From positions 1 through 64,000 of the IMG/VR virus record IMGVR_UViG_3300032093_000074: DNA of 64,000 nt. One strand, written 5' to 3'. The stretch comes from a virus. Below the pieces are notes generated by a model. It did no database searches. It had not been told where the DNA came from and was given only the letters and a program-made list of their open reading frames with translations. Positions within the stretch are counted from its first letter, which is position 1, and each line of letters opens with the position of its first letter. Positions 57,383 to 64,000 of this stretch are shown here, in pieces. Both the position numbers and the translations under genes were made by a program.

Positions 57383-57456
57383 CCCTTAAGGTTGTATTGA
57401 GGGTTGTTGCCGACTAGGGTAGTCGGAACATATCCGTAGACGCTTGGGAGCCGTAC

Positions 57457-57645
57457 ATGGGAACCACGAAAGAGTTTGAATACGGCGATGCCGTGAAGGT
57501 CAAAGGCCTGCATGGAGAGTTCGTCGTCCACAGCAAGAACCAGGACGGTTCATATTCGATTTATGGGGGGACGGTAAGTCACCGTCAGTTCAGGGATATC
57601 TATCCCGACCGGCTTACGCCGATCAAACGAAAGGAACGCCCATGA
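57457..57645 (+). CDS. Small SH3/KOW-like protein
   Basis: GDAVKVKG..GEF pattern; GGGAG RBS. Confidence 0.65.
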   Translation: MGTTKEFEYGDAVKVKGLHGEFVVHSKNQDGSYSIYGGTVSHRQFRDIYPDRLTPIKRKERP

Positions 57646-58061
57646 AGAAGATTCTCGTCGCCGCCTTTGCGGCCATGTCCTTGACCGCCAGCCCCGTCGG
57701 AGCGACCGAGTGGCGCTGCCCCAAATGGCACAAGCTCGCGCTTGACGTCGGGTTCAAACGGTCGGATCTCAAGACCCTTGACTACATTTTGTGGCGTGAG
57801 AGCCGATGCCGGCCAGAAGCCAAGGGCTACAACAAGCGGGCCGACGGCAGTGTCTGGTCGACCGACCTTGGGCTCAGCCAAATTAATAATTACAGCTGGG
57901 TTACCTACCTTCGGAACCTCGGGATCATCAAGCACTCCGAGGACCTGTTACACCCACGCACTAACTTGCGAGCTGCGAAAGCCTTGTATGACTACTCAAA
58001 GTCCAAGGGCTACTCACCGTGGCACCAATGGAGAATCAGTAGTAGCACATACCGAGGGTAA
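57642..58061 (+). CDS. Secreted lytic transglycosylase (homolog of 13051..13500)
   Basis: Signal peptide; RESRC; NKRADGSVWSTD.GL.QINNYSWVTYLR shared. Confidence 0.85.
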   Translation: MKKILVAAFAAMSLTASPVGATEWRCPKWHKLALDVGFKRSDLKTLDYILWRESRCRPEAKGYNKRADGSVWSTDLGLSQINNYSWVTYLRNLGIIKHSEDLLHPRTNLRAAKALYDYSKSKGYSPWHQWRISSSTYRG

Positions 58062-58090
58062 TGTGGTATAGTAGAATCATGGAGGATCAA

Positions 58091-58615
58091 ATGACCACAG
58101 AAATTGAGAAAACAACATTCGGTGTCGCCACAGGTGGCACCCCCGAGATCGTCAAAGTGTTCAACCGAGCACTCCTTGACGCTGACGAACTGCGCCAAGA
58201 GCTCGCAGACGCCGGTGACTACACGTCACTCGCCTACGGCCTCGTCGCGTTCAAAGACCTCAAAGCGAACCTGGACATCCTGGTCCGCGCAATCGAGGAC
58301 GACGTAGCTGCCCACCTGCCAGCAAAGAAACACACCATTGAAGGACTCGGCACCTTTGAGCGCCGATCCACCACGTCACGCAAATGGGACTCCGAAGGCC
58401 TCATGCAGTACATGGTGCGCGACGTCCTTGACCCCGACCGCACTGGTGAAGTCAACTACGACCGCATCTGGGATCTGATCGAGGCCCTCAAAGCCGTGCT
58501 GCCCCTCACCGCGTCGCTTGGCTGGCGTGTCACCGCACTCAAAGAGCTCGGCATGCCCGTGGACAACTTCGCCGAAACAACCTACGGCCGTCAAACAATC
58601 TCGGTGGTGAAGTGA
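58091..58615 (+). CDS. Hypothetical protein of recombination module
   Basis: GGAGG RBS; TATAGT promoter box at 58067; alternative leaderless start at 58079. Confidence 0.65.
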   Translation: MTTEIEKTTFGVATGGTPEIVKVFNRALLDADELRQELADAGDYTSLAYGLVAFKDLKANLDILVRAIEDDVAAHLPAKKHTIEGLGTFERRSTTSRKWDSEGLMQYMVRDVLDPDRTGEVNYDRIWDLIEALKAVLPLTASLGWRVTALKELGMPVDNFAETTYGRQTISVVK

Positions 58616-59544
58616 TGAGCGACGTAGAACTGTACGAACACACATGGAAACTCGCCCAACGTGTCAACCAGACACCGTTCGTGCCGAAGTCCATGATGGG
58701 CAAACCCGAACACGTCCTAGCCTGTGTGCTGTACGGGCGGGAGATCGGGCTCGGCCCAATGCAGGCGCTGAACAGCATCCACGTCATTGAAGGTCGCGCC
58801 GCTGCCAGCCCCGAACTGATGCGAGCACTCGTCGCCAAAGCCGGCCACCGCATCGACATCACCGAAAACACCAACGACGCATGCACCATGAAAGGCAGCC
58901 GGCAGGACACCGGCGCTGAAGCCGTGGTGCGCTGGTCAATGGACGACGCGAAGGCCGCAGGGCTGACGCACAAAGACAACTGGAAAAAGTATCCGCGAGC
59001 CATGCTGGCCGCGCGAGCGACAAGCGAACTGTGTCGCCTGCTTTTCCCAGACGTGATCGCTGGGCTTTCCTACACCCCTGAGGAGGTGGAAAGCATCTCT
59101 AACGAGAGGACCGTGACCCCGTCTCGCCAAGAGATCCAGGAAAGCCCAGCACCGACCGACGAACTGATCGTTGACGCTGTTATCGTGGCCGAGACGGATC
59201 AGTCCGTTGTGCAAGTGGAGGATGGGCCCGAGGTACCTGGGGAGGACATCGCGGGCCCATCCGAAACTGACCCAACCGAAGCCGCGCTGGAGCTCCTGAT
59301 GGAAGCGTTCCCCGGCAGTGAGCTCGTTGAAACCGGCGAACCAGTCGCCGAGGCTGAGCTGGTCGATAGCAAAACCGCTGACGAACGACGCAAAGAGATG
59401 AAAGCGTGGGGCAACTGGAACCGCATCCGTGCCGTAGCAATGCCCATTGCCCGAGGCGAAGGCATGGCCGTCCCACAGAACGTAGACGAGTTCATCAACA
59501 ACCACACCCTGTACACCCTCGTCGCAAAGCAGCTGAGCCGATGA
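58612..59544 (+). CDS. RecT-like single-strand annealing protein
   Basis: GKPE....G.EIGL.PMQAL..IHVIEGR, AKAAGL...NWKKYPRAML.ARA..PDV motifs. Confidence 0.8.
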   Translation: MMSDVELYEHTWKLAQRVNQTPFVPKSMMGKPEHVLACVLYGREIGLGPMQALNSIHVIEGRAAASPELMRALVAKAGHRIDITENTNDACTMKGSRQDTGAEAVVRWSMDDAKAAGLTHKDNWKKYPRAMLAARATSELCRLLFPDVIAGLSYTPEEVESISNERTVTPSRQEIQESPAPTDELIVDAVIVAETDQSVVQVEDGPEVPGEDIAGPSETDPTEAALELLMEAFPGSELVETGEPVAEAELVDSKTADERRKEMKAWGNWNRIRAVAMPIARGEGMAVPQNVDEFINNHTLYTLVAKQLSR

Positions 59545-59717
59545 TGCCGTTCGGATACGACATGTTCCAAGACCCCGACGTGGTCAAGGAAATGATGGAC
59601 AACATCGCCAAGATCATGAAACGCAACGGCGAGCTGTATGCGATGGTCGGCAAAATGGAACAAGAAATCGGCCAGCTAAGAATGGAGCTGTTACTTCGTG
59701 GCGACACACATAGCTGA
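59541..59717 (+). CDS. Small coiled-coil protein
   Basis: Coupled ORF. Confidence 0.55.
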   Translation: MMPFGYDMFQDPDVVKEMMDNIAKIMKRNGELYAMVGKMEQEIGQLRMELLLRGDTHS

Positions 59718-60324
59718 CATCCCTCGACCCATGTACGCGTACGTCAACACGGCGTACCTGTACGACCATCACCCTGACCACATCGCGTCATGGCAAGAGT
59801 GCCTGATCTACGGCATCTCCGCTATCCCCAGCCGCGCGTGGGGCCTATCCATCCTGATGAACAACGGCGCGATGGTGCAACACCTGCCACCCCAAGCCGT
59901 ATCGCTTCAAGGCCACAGCCAAGCCGGCGAGCTCGACCACTACCACGCACTGCCCGACCTGCAAGTCTGGTCATGCTACGGCTACGACTTCGCAGTCCAC
60001 GAATACGACGCCCTGTCCGAACTGCGGTGCCGCGTCTACCTCGGTGACGGCACATGGGAACCTGGCCGCTACTGGTTCACCGCCGCGCCCTACGGCGACC
60101 ACTACGCTCGCACACCCGACCAGCACAAGCATTTCAACTTCGTGTGGCTTGAGTGCGGCGCGCTCGCAGCCCTGCCGGGGAATCGAATGTTGATGAGCGA
60201 CCCGAGTTTCACCCACCTGCCCCCCGAAGGGGTGCGGCCGGACTACAGGGTCAACACGCGCTACTGGTACCCCGAAGACCCGTGGCTAAAGTTCGATAAA
60301 ACTATTACGGAGGTAACAGGATGA
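59698..60324 (+). CDS. Conserved hypothetical phage protein
   Basis: G..AIP.RA...NGA...HLP..WSCY..G.Y.FT..QHK..G..AA.P.NR pattern. Confidence 0.7.
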   Translation: MATHIADIPRPMYAYVNTAYLYDHHPDHIASWQECLIYGISAIPSRAWGLSILMNNGAMVQHLPPQAVSLQGHSQAGELDHYHALPDLQVWSCYGYDFAVHEYDALSELRCRVYLGDGTWEPGRYWFTAAPYGDHYARTPDQHKHFNFVWLECGALAALPGNRMLMSDPSFTHLPPEGVRPDYRVNTRYWYPEDPWLKFDKTITEVTG

Positions 60325-60536
60325 ACCGCGAAGAATGGCTTGACTTTGGTTTCGACCACGGTTTTTGTAGCAGGCCCGTGTGTGCCGTGCACGACTGGCT
60401 CCCGTCTACAGCTGAAGAAGAACAAGACTTCTGCGAAGGCTTGGACCCGTGCATTGTGGCGATCCGTGTCTACCACGACGACGCTGAGAAGCAGGCGGTC
60501 GAAGACAACGATGGCATCCTTAAGAGTGGTAGCTGA
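60321..60536 (+). CDS. Hypothetical protein (C..HD..GLDPC)
   Basis: GGAGG RBS; coupled. Confidence 0.7.
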   Translation: MNREEWLDFGFDHGFCSRPVCAVHDWLPSTAEEEQDFCEGLDPCIVAIRVYHDDAEKQAVEDNDGILKSGS

Positions 60537-60586
60537 TCGCCCACGATGGAGGACGCGAGCGACCAGCCGCGTCTAATCTACCCAAT

Positions 60587-60628
60587 AGAAAAGCCCGAGT
60601 CCGGGGTCACACTTCGGACTCGGGCTTT
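60587..60628 (-). terminator. Intrinsic terminator of divergent regulator gene; 11-nt loop AAGUGUGACCC
   Basis: 14-bp perfect arms 60590-60603/60615-60628; UUUUCUAUU tail on minus strand. Confidence 0.8.
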
Positions 60629-60655
60629 ACCGCGCTTGGGAGCGAGCGGAGACTA

Positions 60656-60919
60656 TCAGGGCAAGTGTGTGAAAGCAAGTTTGGGTGGCCGCTTGATTCC
60701 GTACACGGTGTGGCCCTTCGGTGTGTTCCTGGAGACAAAGTCGTAGCCCTGGGATTCGTAGCGCCGGCGCAGCCGTTTGCATCGGTGTTTGGCGATACTG
60801 CTGGAGGGGAACGACCCGAGCGCGGCCCACTGCCCTACGTTCGCGTCAAGGAAGGCGACGAACTCAGCGGCCTTGGCTGAGGCTTCGCGGGGTGGCCGTT
60901 CGAGGATGAAGTCAGACAT
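60656..60919 (-). CDS. Small putative DNA-binding regulator, leaderless, divergent from early operon
   Basis: TAAACT -10 box 7 nt before ATG; basic protein with GQWA..A...R..G.DF.SR..VYG pattern. Confidence 0.6.
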   Translation of the reverse strand: MSDFILERPPREASAKAAEFVAFLDANVGQWAALGSFPSSSIAKHRCKRLRRRYESQGYDFVSRNTPKGHTVYGIKRPPKLAFTHLP

Positions 60920-60926
60920 AGCTACG

Positions 60927-60973
60927 AGTTTAGTGCGCGAAGGGTTGCGCGTCGAGTTGGTTGGTGGTATTGT
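60927..60973. promoter_or_regulatory. Overlapping divergent promoters
   Basis: Plus strand TTGCGC-17-TATTGT (60945-60973); minus strand TCGACG-17-TAAACT. Confidence 0.65.
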
Positions 60974-61010
60974 CGAACACGTCGCCAACCGGCGACACCT
61001 TCACAACCTC

Positions 61011-61024
61011 GAAAGGGTCACACC
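61011..61024 (+). promoter_or_regulatory. Start-associated motif GAAAGGGTCACACC (copy 1; others at 62193, 63623, 63856)
   Basis: Motif 0-1 nt before four early start codons; copy 2 reads GAAAGAGGGTCACACC. Confidence 0.9.
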
Positions 61025-61579
61025 ATGAGCGCATATTTAGTTAATCAAGACACCATCAACCTATTGGCGTCGGCCGCCCTCGATCCCATGTGGCGAGGCC
61101 ACGGCGCGCACACTTCCGGCGTCAGCGTCTACGCCGAGACAGGCCACCTCAAGTGCCACACCCGCGAGGCCCGCGACTTAGTGCGGCCTGATGGTTGGTC
61201 AAAGCGTTTTGAGGTCTTCGAGGCCACCTATTCCGACGGCGACACCTTGGCCCGCGAACTGGCGGCCGCTAACTATTTTTCGATGATCGCCCGCTACCCC
61301 AAAGAACATGACCTCGCCACCATGTACGAGTACGCCGCCGGCCACTCCTTCCAGCGCATTAGCGCGGCCGAGGCCACGCGCCTCGACGTGCTCGGGGCCA
61401 TCAACTGCTACAGGTACCAAAGCTGCGAAGCGGGCGACGAATACGACCGACTTTGGGGCCGGTTCTGCCAGGCGCTAGAACGCCGCGTGGTGTCCGAGTT
61501 GCCTGGTGTTGGTTGGGAATACAAGCGCCCCGAGTCGGCCCCCGTGTCGATCTTCGAGCTGTCGCAGAAGGGCAAGTGA
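61025..61579 (+). CDS. Hypothetical early protein (MSAYLV..I..L, N..S..ARY, CYRYQSCE family)
   Basis: ORF with start-associated motif. Confidence 0.8.
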   Translation: MSAYLVNQDTINLLASAALDPMWRGHGAHTSGVSVYAETGHLKCHTREARDLVRPDGWSKRFEVFEATYSDGDTLARELAAANYFSMIARYPKEHDLATMYEYAAGHSFQRISAAEATRLDVLGAINCYRYQSCEAGDEYDRLWGRFCQALERRVVSELPGVGWEYKRPESAPVSIFELSQKGK

Positions 61580-62088
61580 TGAGGCCGACATTCACCCCCG
61601 AGCAACTCGACCACCTGGCCGCCGGCGAAACTGTCGAGGCTGGCGGCGTGGCCTGGACCGTCAACACGTCGGGCGATGCCGATACGCAGCTTGCCGACTT
61701 CGATTGCTACGGCCGCGTCGAGTGGATTGGCCGCCGCCCCGAGATGCAGCGGCCCGCAGGGTTTAGCGGCCGCGCCGAAAAGATCCACACCGGCAGGGAT
61801 GCTTACTGGTGGGAGCCGCCGGCAGACATCGCCCCCGCAGTGTGGCACAGTGACGCGCAGCTCCGACGCTCGTTGCGTCACAGTGTTTTAGACATTCTGG
61901 CGCATGGTTTCCAGATTGTGAGCCTGTCCGGCCGGCGGCGGTGCGAGTGTTGCGGCAGTGTGCGGGAGGTCACTGGGGCCGCGCTCGGCGGCGTCGATCC
62001 CTTCCCCGACGCCTCGTACCTGCGGGACATAATCCAGGACCTGGGCAGCATGGTCGACGTTCCCGAGACGGTGGCCGCAGCGCACTAA
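61579..62088 (+). CDS. Hypothetical early protein
   Basis: TGATG-coupled ORF. Confidence 0.65.
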   Translation: MRPTFTPEQLDHLAAGETVEAGGVAWTVNTSGDADTQLADFDCYGRVEWIGRRPEMQRPAGFSGRAEKIHTGRDAYWWEPPADIAPAVWHSDAQLRRSLRHSVLDILAHGFQIVSLSGRRRCECCGSVREVTGAALGGVDPFPDASYLRDIIQDLGSMVDVPETVAAAH

Positions 62089-62110
62089 CCTCGACAAAAC
62101 TACCCAACCG

Positions 62111-62158
62111 AAAGAGGCCCGCCCGATCACTTGCGGCGGGCCTCTTTTCGTGTATCAT
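62111..62158 (+). terminator. Terminator fused with downstream promoter
   Basis: AAAGAGGCCCGCC..GGCGGGCCTCTTTT; TTGCGG-16-TATCAT overlaps the 3' arm. Confidence 0.65.
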
Positions 62159-62208
62159 CACACCACGCGCGGCAACGGGCCGCACGTTCACAGAAAGAGG
62201 GTCACACC

Positions 62209-62871
62209 TTGAGAATAGTAGAAGTAACCAAGTACAAGGGCGGCCAGGGGGCAACACTTACCGCCGCCATGTTCGCGCTCGTCGCGCTCGAAGATTCCGG
62301 CCCGCTGGCCCAGGTGCTCATTGTGTCGGATTCGCTCGATATCTTTTCTGCCCTGGCGCTGCCCTCCCCCATTAACGGCAGCGGGGCCTACAGTAACGAG
62401 CGGCTGCACGTTGTGAAGGTCGACGACAAGGTGACGCGCAAAGAACTCGAAGACCTGGCCAAAGGGTTCGGCGCTTCGTATGTCGTCACTGACCTCGCCG
62501 AGATTATCCGAGACGTGAAGAATAGCCGCCCGCTATGGAGGTCGAAAGACGTAGCGCACGAACTGGTGACAGTTTGCCGGCCCTGCTATATGGCCATTCG
62601 CTCGACGCTGGCGGCAAAGAATCCGAACATTCACCACCTGGTGACGTTCGAGGAAGAAGGGCGCGCGCTCACCGTAAAGGACCTGCACACCGTGACGCGG
62701 CCCAACCGGATCACGGCGGCCAAGTGGGCCCCGACAGTGGCCCGCGCGCTCGATGCTGGCCTACTCCAGCACCGTAGGCCCGCCGAACTCGCCGGCCTGG
62801 AGGCTGGGGCCCGCACTACCTGGGCGGTCCTGGCACTGAAGGCGGCAGACTTGGCGGGGGCTTCGGCATGA
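62209..62871 (+). CDS. MinD/ParA-superfamily protein, Ssd/TadZ(CpaE)-like
   Basis: TTG start after motif; deviant Walker A KGGQGAT; RPCYMAIR, EEGRALT..DL, W.P.VARALDAGLL. Confidence 0.65.
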   Translation: MRIVEVTKYKGGQGATLTAAMFALVALEDSGPLAQVLIVSDSLDIFSALALPSPINGSGAYSNERLHVVKVDDKVTRKELEDLAKGFGASYVVTDLAEIIRDVKNSRPLWRSKDVAHELVTVCRPCYMAIRSTLAAKNPNIHHLVTFEEEGRALTVKDLHTVTRPNRITAAKWAPTVARALDAGLLQHRRPAELAGLEAGARTTWAVLALKAADLAGASA

Positions 62872-63143
62872 GCGAATACAACCGCATGACGCGCCGCGCG
62901 TTGCTCGACCACCTCGACAGTGTGGCGGCGGCCCTCCGAGAAAGTGACCGGCCCTCTGCCCTGGAGGTGGCTGCCCTTTGTGCTGCCATTGACCGCGCCG
63001 CGCTCGATCAAATCCGCGACATACTCGCCCAACCTGACGCCGGCCTCGATTCCCTCGATGAGGTGGCCGAGGTCCTCGAACTGGCAGCGGAACAAAACTT
63101 ACAAGCAGTCCGAGACGCGCGCCGAGGGGGTCCGACATGGTGA
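62868..63143 (+). CDS. Hypothetical early protein
   Basis: Coupled ORF. Confidence 0.6.
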   Translation: MSEYNRMTRRALLDHLDSVAAALRESDRPSALEVAALCAAIDRAALDQIRDILAQPDAGLDSLDEVAEVLELAAEQNLQAVRDARRGGPTW

Positions 63144-63532
63144 CGCCCTTTCAGGTGTGCCACTGCGGCGGCGCTCCAGGTATGCCGCACCCTTCGGCGT
63201 GCCCTTATCCGTACTACGGAGACGTGCCGCGCCTGGTCGACGAGTGGCAGCGGGCTAGTGACGAGCGGGCCGAACACTTGGCCAGTGAGCGCGAACTAGC
63301 CGGCCTCGACGGGTTCGGGGAAGTGTTCGCCCTGGCTGCGGCCGAGCGGGCTGCGCTCCTGGTGCGACTGGTGCACCGTCATTTACTCGACGCGTACACG
63401 GCCGGCGAGGTGGTGACCGACGCCGGCGAGATCCTCGACCACCTGCGCGAGGTTCGCAAAGTGTCGCGCGAGTCGATGACCTACGCCCAGGCCTTCGAGT
63501 TCGAGAACGCAACGCCGGCCCCCTGGCCGTAG
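63137..63532 (+). CDS. Hypothetical early protein
   Basis: GAGGGG RBS; overlaps upstream stop. Confidence 0.6.
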   Translation: MVTPFQVCHCGGAPGMPHPSACPYPYYGDVPRLVDEWQRASDERAEHLASERELAGLDGFGEVFALAAAERAALLVRLVHRHLLDAYTAGEVVTDAGEILDHLREVRKVSRESMTYAQAFEFENATPAPWP

Positions 63533-63543
63533 TGCTCGACGAT

Positions 63544-63591
63544 AAAGGCCCGCCAGGTATCCCCCGCCTGGCGGGCCTTTTCGCGTACTGT
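63544..63591 (+). terminator. Terminator fused with downstream promoter
   Basis: AAAGGCCCGCCAGG-TATCCCCCG-CCTGGCGGGCCTTTT then TACTGT -10; arms resemble 62111. Confidence 0.7.
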
Positions 63592-63637
63592 CACATGTGC
63601 CGCCGCTCCTGGCGGCCCGTAAGAAAGGGTCACACCA

Positions 63638-63874
63638 ATGAGAACACCACACGCCGCACCGTTCCCCGAAGGGTGCACACTGACGCCGCCCGAGTGCGAA
63701 GCCGTCGCCATTGTCGAGGCAGGTGCGCGCCATTACGAAGCCACGAAGAACGAGCCGGCCCCTACCTCGGCGCTCCTGGCCGTTGTCGTTGCCCTGGCCG
63801 GTTGCTTTGTGGTAATGTCCATCTTCACCGGCCGCACGTCGCGGCCCGTCACACCGAAAGGGTCACACCAATGA
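63638..63874 (+). CDS. Hypothetical early membrane protein
   Basis: Start-associated motif; one TM. Confidence 0.65.
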   Translation: MRTPHAAPFPEGCTLTPPECEAVAIVEAGARHYEATKNEPAPTSALLAVVVALAGCFVVMSIFTGRTSRPVTPKGSHQ

Positions 63875-64000
63875 GCAACGAAACAACAACCACCACCGGC
63901 ACAGCTGCGGCCGCCGCGTTCATCGAGCTTGTCACCAAGTGCAGGGAAACACAGGCGGCCGAGATCGAAGGAGGCGGCCAGGCCGAGGCCTGGGCCATTC
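63871..64000 (+). CDS. Hypothetical early protein (partial)
   Basis: Start-associated motif and TAATGT -10 at 63813; runs off the window. Confidence 0.6.
   Translation, partial: MSNETTTTTGTAAAAAFIELVTKCRETQAAEIEGGGQAEAWAI

Follow-up and report, generated by a model that had tools for sequence, protein, structure and literature searches.

The window analysed here comprises bases 1-64000 of the 79,213-bp IMG/VR virus record IMGVR_UViG_3300032093_000074 (G000), and the whole record was also scanned. At 60590-60628 it carries a hairpin that follows a minus-strand gene for an 87-aa protein. An earlier note on this DNA had taken the hairpin for the terminator of that gene's messenger RNA (mRNA), with an unpaired loop antisense to a motif at four gene starts. 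The structure is as it was described there, with a 14-bp stem and an 11-nt loop located 27 nt from the stop codon 60656-60658, and the minus-strand RNA folds with the loop essentially open, whereas in the plus-strand fold G-U pairs close most of it. Comparison with related loci suggests that the hairpin is more than an mRNA end, being probably the body and terminator of a conserved phage small RNA (sRNA) of ~58 nt whose 5' end probably pairs over the Shine-Dalgarno (SD) sequence of an operon encoding RecT. The elements concerned are the following.

60590..60628, both strands: hairpin, probable two-way terminator; 14-bp stem 60590-60603/60615-60628, with an A-run and a T-run on opposite sides
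60604-60614, plus strand: hairpin loop of 11 nt, read from the sequence as GGGTCACACTT
60604..60614, minus strand: the same loop as AAGUGUGACCC, 9 nt of it antisense to the start tag GGGUCACAC
60584..60643, minus strand: predicted sRNA of ~58 nt, 5'-GCUCCCAAGCGCGGUAAAGCCCGAGUCCG-AAGUGUGACCC-CGGACUCGGGCUUUUCUAUU, with predicted 5' end 60643 and 3' end ~60584-60587
60650..60658, minus strand: extended -10 TGATAGTCT, with hexamer TAGTCT at 60655-60650 and TG at 60658-60657, overlapping the TGA 60658-60656 of the 87-aa gene
60656..60919, minus strand: 87-aa protein gene, with a -10-like TAAACT 7 nt before its ATG; always adjoins the sRNA
60633..60643, minus strand: 5' seed GCUCCCAAGCG of the sRNA, holding an anti-SD-like CUCCC and complementary to 57441-57451
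57441..57451, plus strand: seed target CGCTTGGGAGC, covering the SD GGGAG, 5 nt before ATG 57457

Conservation of a predicted small RNA

About 20 related loci (L numbers) were gathered via a ferredoxin-like neighbour gene, the 87-aa protein and motif scans. The high-GC relatives are L046, L115/L250/L251, L117/L119/L260 and L281; L132 (GC = 0.50) is a distant relative, and other relatives have low-GC genomes. The layout of the predicted sRNA was found in ~14 related lineages, high-GC and low-GC alike, and its minus-strand order was kept in 15 of the 15 aligned sequences: TGnTAnnnT or TAnnnT, a gap of 6-7 nt, GCUyCyA, a linker rich in A, and then the hairpin with its U-run. In all 15, TAnnnT was located 6-7 nt from an invariant GCU, mostly with an upstream TG; in the window, the extended -10 ends 6 nt before the invariant GCUCC... 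start of the predicted sRNA. Three positions of the -10 (T6, A7 and T11) were at least 90% conserved, G18, C19, T20, C22 and A24 were invariant (alignment A4), and conservation began exactly at the predicted +1, 60643. Coding constraint does not account for the conservation of the -10, because in the low-GC relatives it is located well beyond the stop codon (~27 nt past it).

The folding energy of the RNA (60 nt) was -29.3 kcal/mol (z = -4.74 vs shuffles), with the 5' 12 nt and the loop left largely free. Its 3' end consists of the 14-bp stem followed by the U-run CUUUUCUAUU, and a stem with a U-run was present in all relatives. The stem GGCCCGAGUC/GACUCGGGCC was identical in the window clade and the distant L132. 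Since other orthologous terminators in the related phages differ in both stem and loop, this hairpin is under sequence constraint and not merely structural constraint. Loops vary in length among the relatives, and RNAalifold on a MAFFT alignment therefore captured the hairpin only in part; a simple promoter/terminator scan missed these hairpins, whose loops are longer than 8 nt. A permissive-threshold search of Rfam with 60200-64000 yielded no family and four chance-level matches, none of them to C4.

Beside the hairpin, every relative carries a short 'box', GCTTGGGAGC in high-GC and GTTAGGAGC in low-GC phages. A stem-pattern scan of viral contigs (CCCGAGTC..GACTCGGG) matched 102 stretches, among which the box was found only in the already known relatives. 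Two roles for the box were rejected. Taken as a plus-strand sigma-70 promoter, TTGGGA-12 nt-TATCAG is wrongly spaced and its last base is not the required T. Taken as the ribosome-binding site (RBS) of a small plus-strand open reading frame (ORF), the box has no conserved ORF to serve: L137 offers a start-stop, L125 a frame of 12 codons, and the window none.

The sRNA gene is quite likely to be real. The earlier note had considered an sRNA derived from the 3' end of the 87-aa gene transcript, and the comparison comes close to that, with a conserved minus-strand unit whose own -10 shares bases with the stop codon of 60656..60919.

A second conserved hairpin was observed at 60537-60572 on the plus strand, in the interval from the 60321..60536 stop codon to the terminator. 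Changes in its stem compensate one another, and the SD-like GGAGG is always displayed in its loop (ATGGAGGAC in the window, AGGAGGAGG in L125 and L124, AAGGAGGGG in L132). The minus strand would display CCUCC. L137-type relatives have no counterpart of this hairpin.

Proposed pairing of the 5' end and the loop with gene starts

The 11-mer CGCTTGGGAGC has only two copies in the 79-kb record, one at the sRNA locus and one at the RBS of gene 57457. With the seed as probe, the target 57441-57451 ranked second among the 1735 candidate start regions of G000 (150-1735 start regions were ranked across phages). In 12 lineages (G000, L253, L115, L119, L132, L268, L269, L280, L125, L124, L137/L134 and L262), each phage's own seed pairs by ~9-12 bp over the SD of the orthologous first gene, and the site ranked 1 or 2. 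Seed pairing was checked in the relatives whose sequence covers the upstream 2-3 kb and was present in every one of them, in L132 with a one-nucleotide bulge. Seed and target have changed in a compensatory manner at positions 6 (C-G to U-A), 9 (G-C to C-G), 10 (C-G to A-U) and 11 (G-C to A-U), and wobble solutions were found in L115/L119 and L280. Duplex energies averaged ~-18 kcal/mol within a clade vs ~-11 kcal/mol across clades. Representative seed/target pairs are:

Window: GCUCCCAAGCG / CGCUUGGGAGC
L137 and L262: GCUCCUAACAG / CUGUUAGGAGC
L124: GCUCCUAACAA / UUGUUAGGAGC
L115: GCUUCCAAGCGU / ACGCUUGGAGGC, with one G-U pair

No other observation argues as strongly as the co-variation of seed and target for an RNA that exists and pairs with mRNA, and the seed probably acts on the 57457 RBS. 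The antisense RNA envisaged in the earlier note fits these data, but the best-supported pairing element is the 5' end and not the loop, and the best-supported target is the 57457 RBS of the RecT operon, on a different transcript from the motif-bearing starts. The operon is organized as follows (all on the plus strand; from the ORF list).

57457..57645: gene 57457, 62 aa, the first gene of the operon
57642-58061: transglycosylase-like protein; start overlaps the preceding stop, as in the next two genes
58061-58615: 184-aa protein
58612-59544: RecT (PF03837, phrog_4171)
59698-60324 and 60321-60536: further genes of the operon, which ends at the shared hairpin 60590-60628

Because these genes overlap stop to start, one blocked site could silence the whole RecT operon. 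The same small gene leads the operon in L137 and L124. In low-GC relatives, the first-gene SD directly follows a TATAAT-type -10 (TATAAT, TATACT), and in high-GC phages a TAGGGT/TAAGGT hexamer ~35 nt upstream is a candidate operon promoter. A palindrome, CCGACTA-GGG-TAGTCGG, was observed at 57410-57426 (plus strand), overlapping the -10-like TAGGGT ~35 nt before ATG 57457. It is also present in L253, while L115 and L119 have TAGGGT or TAAGGT, and it has the appearance of an operator covering the promoter from which the seed-targeted operon is read.

The loop, the other exposed part of the RNA, shares its sequence with the motif noted at gene starts (the start tag). The 9-mer GGGTCACAC had 6 exact copies in the 79,213-bp record, all on the plus strand and 0 on the minus strand. 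Five of them end 0-1 nt 5' of a start codon, and the sixth forms the first nine bases of the loop. The positions of the four tagged starts named earlier were correct as read from the sequence, and a fifth start was added. A control with the reversed pattern of GGGTCACAC gave 0 matches in the whole record. One-mismatch variants were not enriched (15 observed vs 21.8 expected), so the signal consists in a tight cluster of exact copies. The copies and the promoter cassettes that carry them, all on the plus strand, are located as follows; copies were found by exact matching, and tags were read from the sequence.

60604, 61015, 62199, 63627 and 63860 in the window, 64493 beyond its end: copies of GGGTCACAC
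60968..61027: cassette 1, with -10 TATTGT 60968-60973, hairpin GTCGCC-aacc-GGCGAC 60981-60996 and a CA-rich spacer
61011-61024: cassette 1 tag GAAAGGGTCACACC, then ATG 61025
62153..62211: cassette 2, after terminator 62110-62149, with -10 TATCAT 62153-62158 and hairpin GCGGC-aacgg-GCCGC 62169-62183
62193-62208: cassette 2 tag GAAAGAGGGTCACACC, then TTG 62209
63587..63640: cassette 3, after a terminator, with -10 TACTGT 63587-63592 and hairpin GCCGCC-gctcct-GGCGGC 63599-63616
63623-63636: cassette 3 tag, +1 nt, then ATG 63638
63813..63873: cassette 4, with -10 TAATGT 63813-63818 and hairpin GGCCGC-acgtc-GCGGCC 63830-63846
63856-63869: cassette 4 tag, +1 nt, then ATG 63871
64489-64505 of the record, past the window: cassette 5, same layout, with tag 64489-64502 and ATG 64503

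In each cassette, a module of ~60 bp, a TAnnnT-type -10, often placed after a terminator, is followed by a GC hairpin and a CA-rich stretch, and GAAAG(A)GGGTCACACC leads into the start codon. The GC hairpins lie near the predicted mRNA 5' end; their sequences differ between copies with pairing retained. The 3' end of actinobacterial 16S rRNA can presumably pair only with the GAAAGG(G) of the tagged starts, and the conservation beyond GAAAGG that had been claimed is borne out by the GGGTCAC core, which is kept in relatives. GAAAGGGTCAC was found at three to five starts in L046, L115/L250/L251 and L117/L119/L260. One such start was visible on the short contig L281 (RFZO01000293.1, 1.9 kb), which holds close counterparts of the 87-aa gene, the sRNA and cassette 1. 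In low-GC relatives the start is preceded by TTGACA/CATAAT, CGGCAAyAACGCCG and GAAAGAG, without GGGTCAC; judged from these comparisons, the promoter-hairpin-GAAAG arrangement is ancient. ORF 63638..63874, with a stop codon that shares bases with the following ATG (ATGA), contains the -10, hairpin and tag of cassette 4 in its 3' end, and the tag is therefore kept even where it is also protein-coding. The loop GATCACTTG of the terminator 62110-62149 before cassette 2 resembles the sRNA hairpin loop GGTCACACTT, which could reflect chance or common ancestry of both hairpins.

When the loop was used as probe, the five tagged starts ranked 1-5 among the 1735 start regions of G000, with -16.9 kcal/mol each. 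The perfect 9-nt complementarity holds for all four starts noted earlier and likewise for the fifth. GUGACCC was kept in the loops of L046, L115/L251, L119/L260 and L281, where the homologous loops hold GGGGTCAC, and the inner stem was altered (CG..CG in the window vs GCG..CGC or CAGCG..CGCUG in relatives). The match between loop and tag is 9 nt in G000 and L281. In L132, the outer stem GGCCCGAGTC/GACTCGGGCC was unchanged around a 7-nt loop CCCTACA (RNA UGUAGGG), and CCCTACA stands directly 5' of the SD at two starts sharing CCCTACAAAGGAGAAAA, which ranked 1-2 among 269 start regions for the loop. One of these two starts is that of the first gene beside the 87-aa gene.

We favour, as on balance the probable account of the whole, an sRNA with two exposed anti-RBS elements, its 5' end and its loop. 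The ~58-nt RNA would be transcribed off the minus strand, starting at an extended -10 of its own that overlaps the 87-aa gene stop, and the 3' end of the 87-aa gene mRNA would carry the sRNA sequence too. The seed GCUCCCAAGCG would pair over the SD of gene 57457, the head of the RecT operon. The loop AAGUGUGACCC would pair with GGGUCACAC, the tag between GAAAGG (SD) and the start codon, at five cassettes, each of which has its own tag copy because each has its own promoter. One site for the coupled operon and a tag for every separate cassette make a coherent design. From the sequence we infer that the RNA is produced, that its pairing represses rather than activates, and when the genes are expressed; that they are early genes and that a regulon is silenced is likewise conjecture. 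A far-reaching version of this proposal makes the RNA a two-headed master switch, whose 5' end shuts the RecT operon and whose loop reads the tag on all cassettes, with loop and tag as fast-evolving specificity on a conserved scaffold in the manner of heteroimmunity, the 87-aa R3H-like protein as a dedicated chaperone, and the same logic explaining a motif of cluster K mycobacteriophages (below). This full version is conceivable, but we regard it as unlikely.

Alternative explanations of the repeats

Support for loop/tag pairing is weaker than for seed/target pairing. The loop match gains credibility because a real sRNA surrounds the loop, which is that RNA's other exposed part, and the chances that the loop does or does not act on the tagged starts seem to us evenly matched. 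The covariation of loop and tag among relatives, which the earlier note had proposed as a check, gave a divided answer: five high-GC lineages keep the match and L132 has changed both together, but L253 has lost the loop match and the low-GC relatives and L118 are without one. Several observations weigh against the two-element reading. The close relative L253 has GGGTCACACC or GGTCACACC at four starts without a pairing loop; its loop is of the GUGCCA type (sense GTGGCACTG) and unable to pair with the tag. The low-GC relatives with sRNA and cassettes showed no clear match between tag and loop, and the loop 7-mer of L118 was absent from its cassette starts. The two L132 starts share one 17-nt repeat, so the support from L132 effectively amounts to one event. 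With a GC-rich stem of 14 bp closing the 11-nt loop, there is little room for a duplex of 9 bp, of which perhaps only ~6-7 bp may form. One sequence-specific protein would likewise be expected to yield same-sense repeats that change together, and orientation does not tell an antisense RNA from a plus-strand decoy because the hairpin can terminate both strands. The promoter, ends and expression of the sRNA are themselves predictions from sequence. Two further sets of loop matches were rejected: the only other match to the L253 loop falls inside a long ORF and is taken as chance, and the low-GC loop matches (purine-rich stretches of 5-7 nt, GAGAAAT in L137 and GAGAAAA in L262, none in L134) are too short.

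The label 'regulator' that the earlier note had given to 60656..60919 found no backing, as the product showed no helix-turn-helix (HTH) and no known family, and this counts against the reading of the earlier note. The mRNA of the 87-aa gene is probably leaderless because TAAACT is only 7 nt from the ATG, and homologues of the protein were found in all sRNA-bearing lineages. Its AlphaFold model (predicted local distance difference test, pLDDT, 82) has an alpha-beta-alpha-beta-beta fold. No match to the protein was found in Pfam, PHROGs, a PDB sequence profile or Foldseek, and no HTH occurred among the model-based structure matches. The model bears a weak resemblance to the single-strand nucleic-acid binders R3H, KhpB, IF3-C and YhbY (VIA-align, Atlas), with Z of 4.5-5.8 and a TM (template-modelling) score of 0.57, below the level that the tools regard as meaningful. 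The protein is not evidently a repressor, and a role as partner of the sRNA would be speculation. On the plus strand, AAGTGTGTG was observed at 60663-60671, upstream of the sRNA -10, and TAGTGCGCG at 60931-60939, at the 87-aa gene promoter. In low-GC relatives, repeats of the GAGAGTGAGCG type flank the 87-aa gene at these two positions, and all these repeats are candidate transcription-factor sites controlling both minus-strand promoters.

One alternative is that the repeats are sites of a single sequence-specific phage protein, which might act on DNA as a stoperator-like roadblock or on RNA, either repressing translation as T4 RegA does or cutting it as the nuclease RegB does, with the 87-aa protein as one candidate. 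The loop copy and the box near the hairpin would then be merely further sites. Such a protein would account for the common sense of all tag copies and for sites that change together, as they do between clades, and the constant linkage of the 87-aa gene to the sRNA element, its model's faint likeness to single-strand nucleic-acid-binding R3H/KhpB folds and the repeats such as AGTGTGTG and AGTGCGCG that flank it all point in this direction. However, the alternative leaves unexplained why a conserved -10 precedes one copy at the right distance and orientation with a terminator right behind, and why a tag copy exactly fills a hairpin loop in two clades. The unrelated motifs GCTTGGGAGC and GGGTCAC would require two specificities, and the 87-aa protein showed neither an HTH nor a known DNA-binding family, its fold similarity being below the meaningful level. 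We consider this explanation improbable. We give the same low weight to a second one, in which the sRNA and its seed are real and the loop match is due to chance or hitch-hiking, GGGTCAC(ACC) being a start-associated translation element spread with the cassettes, such as an unstructured CA-rich spacer or an enhancer beside the GAAAGG SD, without a loop partner. L253, with the tag and no matching loop, speaks for it; low-GC cassettes likewise exist without any loop match, the bases after the tag are variable in L115 and L119, many cassettes also have CA-rich sequence resembling TCACA(CC) ahead of the SD, and an extra chance copy of the 9-mer would not be rare (~0.6 expected in 158 kb of both strands by our own estimate). 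Yet the extra copy lies 400 bp from the cluster, in the loop of the one hairpin that is sequence-conserved across clades; its 7-nt core persists in five lineages despite changes of the inner stem; L132 provides an independent match of loop and tag; and a given 7-mer is expected in an 8-11-nt loop at a rate of roughly 1e-4 to 1e-3 per hairpin (a rough estimate).

The hairpin might also work on the other strand, at the 3' end of the RecT-operon mRNA, where it would show the sense sequence GGGUCAC, mimic the tagged starts and titrate a tag-reading factor in the manner of CsrB and CsrA. Flanked by an A-run and, opposite, by a T-run, it can terminate both strands, and the plus-strand hairpin 60537-60572 just upstream shows GGAGGA in its loop in many relatives. 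In the window phage, however, plus-strand G-U pairs close most of the loop and the plus-strand T-run is poor (CTTTACC). The minus-strand -10 and the seed/target covariation would also go unexplained, and we find such a decoy very unlikely.

Relation to known phage systems

Why some actinobacteriophages tag a subset of their gene starts has been a question since 2011, when the start-associated sequence (SAS) of cluster K mycobacteriophages was described (PMC3203893); its role was called ill-defined in 2024-2025 (PMC11373665, PMC12699233). Pope et al. left unsettled whether a phage or host RNA or a protein reads the SAS (PMC3203893), and no SAS partner RNA has been published as far as our literature search reached. 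The present locus offers a mutable partner for a tag, an sRNA with predicted promoter, ends and seed and with co-varying targets in a dozen relatives. If the proposal is true, it would be the first described trans-acting sRNA regulon in Actinomycetota phages within the literature searched, with one RNA governing a coupled operon via one site and separate cassettes via repeated tags. L253, in which the loop match was lost, would then be a natural test case. The SAS question becomes addressable by simple compensatory-mutation experiments, and a direct comparison is possible in cluster K phages with existing RNA-seq.

Like the SAS, its nearest known analogue, the tag is an asymmetric motif in one orientation (here at five starts, all on the plus strand) that stands shortly ahead of the start codon in a number of non-structural genes, and both overlap the SD yet are conserved beyond 16S pairing. 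The SAS overlaps the SD, and the extended SAS (ESAS) consists of a promoter and an inverted repeat (PMC3203893). Many SAS copies follow such a promoter and inverted repeat, as in the cassettes here. The motifs differ, however, being GAAAGGGTCAC here and GGGATAGGAGCCC in cluster K, and no tag fits the SAS consensus (GGGATAGGAGCCC, up to 2 mismatches, 3-8 nt before starts), as the tag lies 0-1 nt before the start. There are 4-5 copies here vs 11-19 in cluster K, and the hosts also differ, the phages here probably being those of uncultured freshwater Actinomycetota. The ESAS has conserved 17-bp imperfect inverted repeats, whereas the cassette stems are 5-8 bp and variable. Since they vary with compensating changes, the cassette repeats fit RNA hairpins; for the ESAS, the case for RNA pairing was slight according to Pope et al. 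(PMC3203893).

Megablast of 60300-64000 found no match among GenBank phage records. Public runs containing this stretch were DNA metagenomes, mainly freshwater, plus 'fungus metagenome', with no RNA run listed. The L281 contig was binned with an Actinomycetota metagenome-assembled genome, a weak host hint given that it may be a prophage fragment or a mis-binned contig. The GAAAGG-type ribosome sites are consistent with an actinobacterial host and its 16S 3' tail. A search of the 79-kb record for integrases of the tyrosine type (PF00589), the only type looked for, found none.

Phage antisense RNAs directed against an RBS include P1/P7 c4, P4 CI, P22 sar and lambda OOP, and a 2025 review of phage sRNAs mentions no case from an actinobacterial phage (PMC12197685). 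The RNA predicted here resembles them as a short phage RNA that would pair with a ribosome-binding region and block translation. The complementary stretches of c4 are considered to lie in loops, and small changes in them set heteroimmunity (PMC12197685). The variable loop on a conserved scaffold resembles these loops. The c4 RNA arises by processing of a larger precursor, and its two elements are directed at two sites around the RBS of a single antirepressor transcript (ant). By contrast with c4 and CI, the 5' end and the loop here would address different transcripts, at 57441-57451 and at the five tags. A permissive Rfam scan of 60200-64000 gave no sign of homology to the C4 RNA family, and Pfam and PHROGs scans identified no antirepressor among the gene products. 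While sar and OOP are cis-antisense RNAs, the RNA here would act in trans on sites 0.4-4 kb away. By mechanism, it would be an anti-RBS antisense RNA outside the known families, trans-acting and with two heads on different transcripts.

Stoperators are short asymmetric DNA sites for an HTH immunity repressor, present in tens of copies across the genome. The tags are likewise short asymmetric repeats oriented with transcription near gene starts, but their copies are confined to start regions and one hairpin loop, and the neighbouring protein shows no HTH. Stoperators of cluster A mycobacteriophages are named in PMC3203893.

Cluster K1 phages carry one SAS copy in reverse orientation. In the K1 phage Anaya, we found 16 SAS copies on the plus strand and a single reverse copy. 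This reverse copy makes up the whole 10-nt loop, CCUCCUAUCC, on a stem of 6 bp, GCGCGG/CCGCGC (L282 39860-39895; record ~59,860-59,895), within the 385-nt non-coding gap between gp96 and gp97. The 121 nt around this hairpin fold no better than shuffles (z = -0.68). Because the hairpin is on the strand of the SAS genes, a rightward transcript would display an anti-SAS loop, and this arrangement in Anaya is suggestive.

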